From an uncultured Chloroflexia bacterium (GTDB lineage Bacteria > Chloroflexota > Chloroflexia > Thermomicrobiales > UBA6265): a stretch of DNA of 64,000 nt. How positions within the stretch are numbered: position 1 is the stretch's first letter; every line of letters begins with the position of its first letter. Under the pieces are notes generated by a model. That model was not told the DNA's origin. It was given only the letters and a program-made list of their open reading frames with translations, and did not search any database. The DNA lies in assembly GCA_963720855.1 (NCBI GenBank), contig CAVRGV010000005.1:260739-324738 (forward strand), in the 5' to 3' direction. The translations under genes and the position numbers were made by a program. This document shows positions 27,447-27,787 of this stretch, in pieces.

Positions 27447-27787
27447 AGGAGTTTCGGAAGAGTAGCACGGCGGGGAGACGGCAAGGGTCCAGAGTCCAGG
27501 GGAGTTGTCGTTGGGGACAGGCCCCCACCGGAAACGGCAGGGCTACGAACGGGACCCCAGGTTGAAGCCAGGGGCTACGAGAAGCCAAGCCTCTCCGAGG
27601 CTGAGCACGAGCGGGAGTGGAAATGGGAATTCGGAATAGGAAATGGATTAGGTGATAGGCAGTAGGCGGTGGGATCGACCGTGACGCTCGGCCGAGCCGG
27701 GATCCAGCACCGAGTGTGGATGACCGGTGACCAGCCCGGGGCGATGATGTGCTGCCCAGGCCCGCGCTCCTGCCGAAGGTGCCGCTT
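27447..27787 (-). ncRNA. candidate 340-nt C-rich leader/ncRNA downstream of SOS-box promoter A
   Basis: It runs from the predicted TSS (AAGCGGCAC, 27787) to the Rieske ATG. It has no credible ORF or RBS, is C/T-rich and G-poor, and shares collinear blocks with leader B. Confidence 0.3.

Follow-up and report, generated by a model that had tools for sequence, protein, structure and literature searches.

The region studied here is a 341-nt stretch (27447-27787, minus strand) within 64,000 nt of contiguous DNA from an uncultured bacterium of the Thermomicrobiales, hereafter the window. It separates a minus-strand gene for the alpha subunit of a Rieske oxygenase from promoter A, whose spacer contains a LexA-type palindrome; on the other side of this promoter, a small zinc-ribbon protein gene is oriented divergently (Table 1). 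The original prediction described the stretch as a C-rich, G-poor untranslated leader, possibly a Rho-dependent attenuator of the Rieske gene or a stand-alone SOS-induced small RNA (sRNA). Based on comparisons with related loci, which carry L numbers in this text, the stretch appears to be a composite intergenic mosaic, not a single functional leader. We lean, with modest confidence, towards the interpretation that positions 27787 to approximately 27663 constitute a stand-alone SOS-induced sRNA gene, that the C-rich tract behind it is a decayed repeat array, and that the last ~130 nt consist of the Rieske gene's own upstream region and of hairpins resembling repetitive extragenic palindromes (REPs).

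Table 1. Features at the locus, in window coordinates (SD, Shine-Dalgarno sequence; ORF, open reading frame).
Feature	Position	Strand	Basis or detail
Small zinc-ribbon protein gene, frameshifted	27835..28391 (C-terminal frame 27993-28391)	+	Homology to the L081 protein, P0001-P0023
Sigma-70-like promoter A	-35 TTGACA 27823-27818, 18-nt spacer, -10 TATGAT 27799-27794	-	Promoter scan, 11/12 matches
LexA-type (Cheo-box-like) palindrome GAACATATGTTC in the promoter spacer	27800-27811	.	GAAC-N4-GTTC pattern
Conserved RNA core, ~125 nt	27663..27787	-	~90% identity to L085, L092, L093, L097 and L098; flanks diverge
P1 hairpin	27779-27775 with 27769-27765	-	91% paired, 2/5 pairs changed on both sides
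Invariant GCGGGCCTGGGCAG	27765-27752	-	Core sequence comparison
P2 hairpin GCCUGGG/CCCGGGC	27761-27755 with 27740-27734	-	Invariant stem; loops vary in length and sequence
G-poor, C/U-rich tract, degenerate heptamer array, consensus YATTTCC	27608..27659	-	Composition; homology with L093, L096 and L098
Hairpin AGCCUC-GGA-GAGGCU followed by UGGCUUCU, sub-threshold terminator-like	27585..27602 (stem 27602-27588)	-	Conserved in L092 and L094
REP-like hairpin CCCCUGGC-UUCA-ACCUGGGG	27552..27577	-	Matches the tail of B (window 34784-34808) at 88% identity
Putative extended -10 TGnTACTCT, TGCTACTCT	27467-27459 (element 27456..27467)	-	Conserved
SD GAAAGG and start ATG	27414..27430 (SD 27430-27425, ATG 27416-27414)	-	Conserved in four genomes
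Rieske oxygenase alpha subunit	ORF 26154-27446	-	Pfam Rieske and Ring_hydroxyl_A
Module B, paralogue of A	34384..34634 (TTGACA 34384-34389, box 34395-34406, TAATAT 34407-34412, RNA from 34419)	+	Inverted repeat I1 with A

Both the promoter and its box, as originally proposed, hold up as sequence: the promoter match misses one of 12 consensus positions, and the palindrome in its spacer is perfect. Promoter A is the only promoter match in the neighbourhood, against 0.2 expected from shuffled sequences, and the box, lying between the -35 and -10 hexamers, overlaps the core promoter. Among the 15 copies of the family described below, the -35 (TTGACA or TTGCCA) and the -10 (TAnnnT, as TATGAT, TAATAT, TATTCT, TATTGT or TACTAT) are kept in all, and the GAAC/GTTC arms in 14, the box of L091 being degenerate. 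Six different N4 cores occupy the centre of these boxes (ATAT, ACAT, AAGT, ATGT, AGAT and AACT). With its conserved elements and drifting free positions, promoter A appears to behave as a functional promoter. The count of GAACATATGTTC in the window, two against 0.71 expected, is not significant alone. We take the box to be a LexA site from its likeness to the GAAC-N4-GTTC boxes of Gram-positive and Dehalococcoides LexA; a search of the literature for a LexA or SOS box, or for an SOS-linked RNA, in Chloroflexi or Thermomicrobia returned nothing relevant. The -10 region is nearly symmetric (TATGATA in the window, TATTCTA in most relatives), so that the plus strand also reads a good -10, TATCAT in the window and TAGAAT in relatives. 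The SD and ATG of the zinc-ribbon gene are located 12-25 nt past the -35 in the window and in L081, and one box may thus control both the sRNA and the zinc-ribbon transcripts.

The sequence that follows promoter A belongs to a family, which was assembled by two routes: a metagenome scan using a DNA pattern of the box and AGCGGCAC, and a search for homologues of the zinc-ribbon protein, which is independent of both the box and the RNA sequence. The DNA pattern gave one orthologue of A (L085), one of the second window copy, module B (L084), and three loci that represent a third type (L081, L083 and L086). Altogether, there are 15 copies, 12 of them distinct, each placed behind a box-bearing promoter; 7 come from the DNA pattern or from the window itself, and 11 adjoin zinc-ribbon homologues (contigs L088-L098), where all 11 contigs fetched carry the module immediately upstream of the gene and divergent from it. 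The similarity of window A to L085, L092, L093, L097 and L098 begins with the -35 hexamer and ends with GATCCCACCGCC near +123/+125 (27787 to ~27663); neither the sequence upstream of the -35 nor that downstream of +125 can be aligned. The common anatomy comprises the promoter with its box, the 5′ end AAGCGGCAC, the P1 hairpin, which may hold a large insertion, the invariant GCGGGCCUGGGCAG in P2, and a type-specific 3′ hairpin domain; in the core, the long 3′ hairpin terminates in GATCCCACCGCC.

A covariance model of homologous leaders had been suggested as a check. Our model R1, which covers the 61 positions of the 5′ domain common to the copies, gave 53-81 bits for every A-, C- and D-type copy (three had been found independently of R1) and 20 bits for B; no further copies appeared in the 445 kb over which it was run. 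Scanning the 64 kb against Rfam 15 gave no gathering-score match, and scans of modules A and B at E up to 10 returned best E-values of 0.59 (A) and 0.31 (B), to unrelated eukaryotic or short models. The module had no match in viral contigs, phages or plasmids. Within this sampling, the family appears to be confined to the Thermomicrobiales; it is apparently undescribed and is a candidate new RNA family. Two relatives, L092 and L093, share the synteny of the window: TauE, RskA, ECF-type sigma and Rieske genes occupy the same strand, and the module and the zinc-ribbon gene come next. The assembly GCA_041390765.1 (L097, L098) holds two module copies, each with a zinc-ribbon gene. One of these copies has a PHP/DNA_pol3_alpha gene, possibly dnaE2-like, in its vicinity and adjoins genes for UDG and RNase J.

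Comparison of the copies supports an RNA structure of the core moderately, not decisively. P1 directly follows AAGCGGCA and is formed by CGUUC/GAGCG in the A-type and CUCCC/GGGAG in the C-type, with GC/UA/CG and UA/CG exchanges; its pairing drops to 57-62% when the partners are slid one column. In the B-type, CAUC/GAUG closes an insertion of ~95 nt that replaces the P1 loop and has two hairpins, whose sequences are wholly different in the window and in L084 and nevertheless pair in both, 7 pairs being changed on both sides. Compensatory support comes from two of the five P1 pairs and from these 7 double changes (two sequences), the other helices being invariant or inconsistent. A single consensus fold for all types (MAFFT and RNAalifold) was unstable, and P1, P2 and the B-type hairpins were kept; beyond P1 and the B-type hairpins, the fold is a prediction. 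A 12-bp perfect palindrome, GCTCGGCCGAGC, becomes GCTCTGCAGAGC in other copies and is still a perfect palindrome. Among the window (27693-27682, minus strand), L085, L092, L093, L097 and L098, the apex of the 3′ hairpin has two self-complementary versions, GCUC-GGCC-GAGC and GCUC-UGCA-GAGC, and both occur within one genome (L097 vs L098). This apex could form a kissing loop, be palindromic as DNA or add one more base pair.

The composition of the full stretch (A47 C134 G85 T75; C 39%, G 25%, C/G 1.58) is moderately C-rich. In sliding 78-nt windows, C/G values of ~3 or more are confined to around 27580-27696, and the first ~100 nt and last ~130 nt range from 1.0 to 1.9. The maximum is 5.0; since C/G of 5 or more is found in just 0.056% of 78-nt windows taken from either strand, this peak is a real outlier. 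The C-rich, G-poor character ascribed to all 340 nt thus holds for ~27606-27683 (C33 G9, C/G 3.67) and fails for the whole, a quarter of which is G. The G-poor 52-nt string quoted as an example was recovered at 27659-27608 on the minus strand (A10 C22 G3 T17), and the GC hairpins placed near the 5′ end are present. The statement that no ORF with a ribosome-binding site occurs here was likewise confirmed: three-frame translations of the stretch contain no start codon with an SD. That the leader encodes a small protein or type I toxin was rejected for want of an SD-backed start and because the copies differ by 1-3-nt indels that disrupt the frames; these indels exclude coding. The sole long minus-strand ORF here, 27226-27798, has its start within the -10 hexamer and runs into the Rieske gene in another frame. 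The fold of the whole region is about as stable as that of shuffled sequences (z = -0.33), with no better result on either strand. No tRNA or tmRNA was found by ARAGORN, and resemblances to ZTP (pfl), Y RNA and tRNA-like elements were unsupported by Rfam or ARAGORN.

The G-poor tract, CCTAATCC ATTTCCT ATTCCGA ATTCCC ATTTCC ACTCCC, occupies exactly +128 to +180 and appears to be a decayed (YATTTCC)n array; Tandem Repeats Finder does not call it, and its repeat nature is read from homology with L093, L096 and L098 alone. The L093 module lies between two arrays, GGAAATA x4.1 just after the core (3654-3682) and GGAAATG x3.9 just upstream of the -35 (3877-3903). A YATTTCC array also follows the core in L096 and precedes the promoter in L092, L097 and L098, with a further one farther downstream in L098. 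Arrays of a second unit, CAGTTRC, are present in L094 (GGTAACT x9.4), L095, L096 and L098; the heptamer arrays of L094 are located at 3361-3415, 3620-3644 and 3841-3906. In a census of 830 kb of fetched DNA, 5/5 YATTTCC and 5/6 CAGTTRC arrays were found no farther than 300 nt from a module. These ten all run in the RNA sense, with offsets close to -60 and +150. The units clustering around the module are YATTTCC, CAGTTRC (= TAACTGG-like) and CCCGGAC. The tract itself is not conserved, L092 differing at this place and L093 having just ~75 nt between the core and the proximal Rieske block. Considering the 80 nt after the core (+126..+205) in 13 family copies, which are not independent, C/G is at least 2 in 6 (background 1.1%) and at least 1.4 in 9 (background 12%). 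A CsrA-sponge role for the plus-strand repeats (GGAAAUG GGAAUUC GGAAUA GGAAAU) was set aside, given the decay of the repeat, the lack of plus-strand promoter or terminator framing, and the occurrence of arrays upstream of the promoter as well.

Long C-rich, G-poor, unstructured RNA is the textbook description of a Rho utilisation (rut) site. Between 27606 and 27683, C greatly exceeds G over a length sufficient for such a site (at least ~60-80 nt), the sequence is untranslated, and the tract is predicted to be mostly unpaired in both the minimum free energy (MFE) and the centroid structures; the full 341 nt, with its C/G of 1.58, does not have this character. With an excess of C over G that recurs, though not universally, behind the core, Rho-dependent termination of the sRNA transcript is a reasonable proposal. 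Beyond the tract, UGGCUUCU has 4 U in 8 nt, and the terminator scan does not call the hairpin that it follows. The two hairpins of 27552-27602 recur in L092 and L094, and their CCCC..UUCA..GGGG part is also found in the tail of B; in L094, the 27552-27577 stem takes the form CCCCACCG-UUCA-CGGUGGGG, a compensatory change. This REP-like double hairpin (27552-27602; 34784-34808; L092; L094), made up of AGCCTCGGAGAGGCT, GGCTTCTCGTAG and then CCCC..TTCA..GGGG, is situated in unrelated intergenic regions.

The end of the stretch next to the Rieske gene contains a conserved block, probably the proximal promoter of that gene. Its TGCTAYTCTTCCG..ACTCC (TGnTAYTCT) part does not vary between the window, L001, L092 and L093, four genomes that have nothing in common farther upstream. 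The conserved block continues through CGAAAGGC, which includes the SD, and both this GAAAGG and the start ATG(G/A)TCGAGCA are kept in L001, L092 and L093. In contrast, the ATG at 27446 lacks an SD and is out of frame in L093. The true start is more likely the ATG at 27416, which would lengthen the untranslated gap to ~371 nt. An inverted repeat, CTCTTCC (27462-27456) / GGAAGAG (27444-27438) with an 11-nt gap, overlaps the putative Rieske -10 and is conserved in L092 and L093; it looks like an operator or a hairpin of the 5′ untranslated region (UTR). The Rieske gene is followed by genes for an ECF sigma factor and an RskA anti-sigma factor.

A Rieske-protein scan of a genome collection placed the window in the Thermomicrobiales (Chloroflexota) and identified L001 as the closest locus, its Rieske protein being 84% identical in amino acids. 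Comparing 80 loci by blastn, we found no match to the leader, apart from ~23 nt that directly precede the L001 start. This locus has no SOS promoter, no module RNA and no C-rich tract, and it keeps the proximal TGCTACTCT/SD/start block. Elsewhere, a convergent gene follows the RNA in L085 (peroxiredoxin-like), L090 (EamA) and L097 (RNase J), and the co-directional downstream genes are mutually unrelated (Rieske, methyltransferase, Lar_N-like). Given these convergent or unrelated genes, the consistent class of downstream gene that marks a riboswitch or cis-acting leader is not found. Contexts that do not depend on a particular gene, together with a Rieske upstream region kept in L001 without the module, point to a stand-alone sRNA gene and not to a leader. 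Of the two possibilities originally raised, the dedicated Rho-dependent attenuator of the Rieske gene finds no support, as L001 has the gene without the module and the tract is a decayed repeat of unconserved sequence; the stand-alone sRNA is favoured for the first ~125 nt by the sharp end of conservation at ~+125 and by the convergent genes of L085, L090 and L097.

In the scheme that we propose for the sRNA gene, LexA would repress promoter A through the box in its spacer until DNA damage removes LexA. Damage would then release a small structured RNA from a strong sigma-70-type promoter; the transcript ends given here are predictions. As no intrinsic terminator was identified, the unstructured, untranslated, C-rich tract at 27659-27608 would be the likeliest place for Rho to load and terminate, and the weak hairpin with UGGCUUCU (27602-27578) may aid termination. 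SOS read-through into the Rieske gene would be possible and incidental.

Several observations weigh against an sRNA gene. Given the good -10 on the plus strand, the conservation could partly serve the zinc-ribbon gene. The MFE of the core is no better than that of shuffled sequences (z = -0.57, 0.02, -1.21 and -1.29), RNAalifold consensus folds differ between subsets, and most conserved positions are invariant and so uninformative on pairing; what covariation there is comes from few, related sequences. The palindromes GCTCGGCCGAGC and GCTCTGCAGAGC could equally well be a stem, a loop complementary to itself or a site recognised in DNA. The terminator scan found no canonical intrinsic terminator on the minus strand, which leaves the 3′ end of the RNA undefined. 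Finally, the excess of C over G behind the core is absent (C/G 1.14 or less) in L085, L098, L081 and L088.

The divergent gene encodes a charged protein of ~200 amino acids, with a CX4C-X10-CX2H motif and a helical C-terminal part. Compared with L094, the window copy lacks 1 nt behind the first Cys pair, which splits the gene into two frames and displaces the His of the CxxH; the gene is probably a pseudogene or affected by an assembly error. Public gene calls retain just the C-terminal 132 amino acids (P0005). The protein has no Pfam, PHROG or NCBIfam family, and its AlphaFold model is of low confidence (pLDDT 59.8, pTM 0.38). At most loci, the gene stands back-to-back with the RNA module, and in B and L084 the block is kept without a divergent gene. 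From 27500 to 28750, the strand bias is strong, with a plus-strand GC skew of 0.2-0.66 and a G/C of 23.5 in the 78-nt window from 28532; in the zinc-ribbon gene and the next ORF (28363-28752), third codon positions are overwhelmingly G, and a G-rich, C-poor coding strand is also seen in homologues such as L081. Past the zinc-ribbon gene, gene content varies greatly between relatives and often resembles that of defence loci (ResIII, DUF559, Z1/DUF4420/HATPase_c_3, HSDR_N, KilA-N, SLFN-like helicase). A Y1_Tnp (IS200/RAYT-like) gene is located directly downstream of the zinc-ribbon gene in L089 (7225-7647) and L090 (2843-3313); no Y1 transposase homologue is present in the window.

Module B contains a box identical to that of A, the only other GAACATATGTTC in the 64 kb, and behind its promoter come AAGCGGCAC and, farther on, GCGGGCCTGGGCAG, as in A; its orthologue L084 keeps both extra hairpins. 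The two modules are inverted and both point outward, A toward the Rieske gene and B toward a methyltransferase gene. Behind the B RNA, ~380 nt of C-rich sequence (C/G 1.4-2.4) extend to the methyltransferase gene (34384-35015 region), which keeps its own CTATGATCC element at 34952-34960, common to L001 and L084. Two blocks of L001 align with the window in tblastx, 1-3471 with window 38321-34975 and 3674-6608 with window 27422-24620. The ~7.5 kb of the methyltransferase-Rieske interval (window ~27450-34975), bracketed by the two inverted modules, is absent in L001, where a 240-nt spacer (L001 3433-3675) is found instead. This segment contains the zinc-ribbon gene, G-rich ORFs without assigned function, and genes for an ABC-2 permease, an ABC ATPase, a zinc-type dehydrogenase and a TetR regulator. 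Its interpretation as a mobile element was rejected, as there is no Y1 transposase homologue, no phage, plasmid or viral-contig match, and no PHROG or NCBIfam match for the island ORFs.

Four other explanations were weighed against the sRNA gene. The whole 340-370 nt could be the 5′ leader of an SOS-induced Rieske mRNA, with the tract as a rut site at which Rho attenuation sets the level of read-through. Promoter A does face the Rieske gene with no canonical terminator between them, the C-rich part (27606-27683) is untranslated and predicted to be unpaired, L092 and L093 retain the module next to the Rieske gene, and most copies have more C than G in the tail after the core. We nevertheless regard such a leader as rather unlikely: in L001, the Rieske gene is found without promoter, RNA or tract, it has its own conserved TGnTAYTCT/SD block, the RNA elsewhere precedes convergent or unrelated genes, and the tract is unconserved (other sequence in L092, just ~75 nt in all from core to proximal block in L093). 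To about the same degree, we doubt that the block acts as DNA, either as the regulatory region of the zinc-ribbon gene, with operators or a bidirectional promoter, or as the end of a variable or mobile island, its palindromes being sites for a protein or for single-stranded DNA (e.g., of a Y1/RAYT-type enzyme). This would account for the inversion of A and B around a segment absent in L001, for the hypervariable, often defence-like gene content past the zinc-ribbon gene and the Y1_Tnp genes after it in L089 and L090, for a palindrome (GCTCGGCCGAGC to GCTCTGCAGAGC) that is perfect both ways, and for long invariant runs without a thermodynamic signal. However, conservation starts exactly at a consensus promoter reading inward and continues into a conserved +1 sequence, and B and L084 keep the block where no divergent gene exists. 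The wholesale replacement of hairpins and a 95-nt insertion in a hairpin loop are typical of RNA and not of operators; furthermore, no Y1 transposase, integrase or transposase was found in the window segment, and the borders of the L001 gap do not match the module ends.

The arrays suggest a further possibility, namely that the sRNA and the zinc-ribbon mRNA form a self-contained SOS-induced sense/antisense pair like tisB/istR, in which a (YAUUUCC)n tail is complementary to a (GGAAAUR)n 5′ UTR. Heptamer arrays in direct orientation on both sides of divergent promoters would make the tail of the sRNA perfectly complementary to the array in the presumed 5′ UTR of the protein gene. L093, with arrays on both sides, has at least 20 nt of exact complementarity, L094 has the same layout with another unit, and the arrays are specific to the module and keep to the RNA strand throughout; in the window, a frameshifted protein gene, a lost upstream array and a decayed downstream array fit a joint loss. 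The same decay fits neutrality as well, and direct repeats around divergent promoters yield complementarity automatically. In addition, the units differ between the two sides in L096, L092 and L097 have the upstream array only, the 5′ UTR is a presumed one, and a charged helical protein of ~200 amino acids is unlike a type I toxin. We consider this pairing improbable. Least credible of all, and to our mind very improbable, is a neutral spacer, whose composition would follow from strand bias and whose promoter and box would be fortuitous or vestigial. The plus strand is indeed G-rich from 27500 to 28700 (GC skew 0.2-0.66) and the number of boxes alone is not significant; against this, the module is ~90% conserved amid unalignable flanks, in 12 distinct copies. 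Returning to the sRNA gene, a wider arrangement may be imagined around it, to which we assign a low likelihood, slightly above that of the antisense pair by itself: an undescribed damage-inducible unit of the Thermomicrobiales, in which a single LexA box would serve a structured RNA of ~125 nt and a zinc-ribbon protein placed back-to-back, with arrays that make the RNA tail antisense to the 5′ UTR of the protein mRNA, and with B as a solo second copy of the RNA in the same genome.

In E. coli, istR-2 is a LexA-controlled sRNA that diverges from an SOS-induced protein gene. The module resembles the tisAB locus (PMC2577331) in that an sRNA and a protein gene diverge around a LexA box, the RNA not being the leader of the downstream gene, and in that the RNA tail of some relatives is complementary to the presumed 5′ UTR of the partner. 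The two show no similarity in sequence or structure, and the partner is a zinc-ribbon/helical protein of ~200 amino acids here and a membrane toxin of ~30 amino acids there; moreover, the predicted complementarity of the module stems from heptamer arrays that are absent in the window. DinR, a LexA-dependent sRNA derived from the dinI 3′ UTR of Klebsiella, is Hfq-dependent and enterobacterial (PMC10907235). It would share with the module RNA the character of an SOS-induced regulatory RNA, whereas the latter has its own promoter and no detected homology to it. Rho-dependent attenuators and rut sites are familiar from 5′ leaders such as those of rho, mgtA and corA. The window tract is similar in its ~50-80 nt of C greatly exceeding G, untranslated and predicted to be unstructured, and it differs in being a decayed, unconserved tandem repeat, in lying before a gene with its own promoter-like block, and in belonging to a module that also occurs without any downstream gene.

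The 6C RNA of Actinobacteria has C-rich loops and has been linked to the SOS response in Corynebacterium (PMC5014011). Like the module RNA, it is a C-rich small RNA of a high-GC bacterium with a link to DNA damage, putative in the module RNA. In scans of both modules that admitted E-values of up to 10, the 6C model of Rfam had no match. To our knowledge, 6C has not been reported under a LexA box. The short tandemly repeated repetitive sequences of cyanobacteria are intergenic direct repeats of heptamers. Intergenic TAACTGA heptamer repeats have been described in Beggiatoaceae, Cyanobacteria and Bacteroidetes (PMC4679880). The module arrays share with these the 7-nt tandem unit, the intergenic location and the position beside start codons, and the unit GGTAACT (= TAACTGG) is one base off; they differ in being tied to one promoter-RNA module and to one strand, and the unit in the window is YATTTCC.

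For annotation, these results mean that the Rieske oxygenase need not be an SOS gene, that its start is probably 30 nt downstream of that of the longest ORF, and that the striking C-rich string would reflect the decay of a repeat and not a designed element. LexA-controlled sRNAs are known to us from few, mostly enterobacterial cases, and we know of none from Chloroflexota. The RNA of the module is a candidate for a new Rfam family. If our interpretation is correct, the promoter-RNA module, with its LexA-type box, protein partner and arrays, would offer an entry point to the SOS response of a phylum rich in uncultured members.

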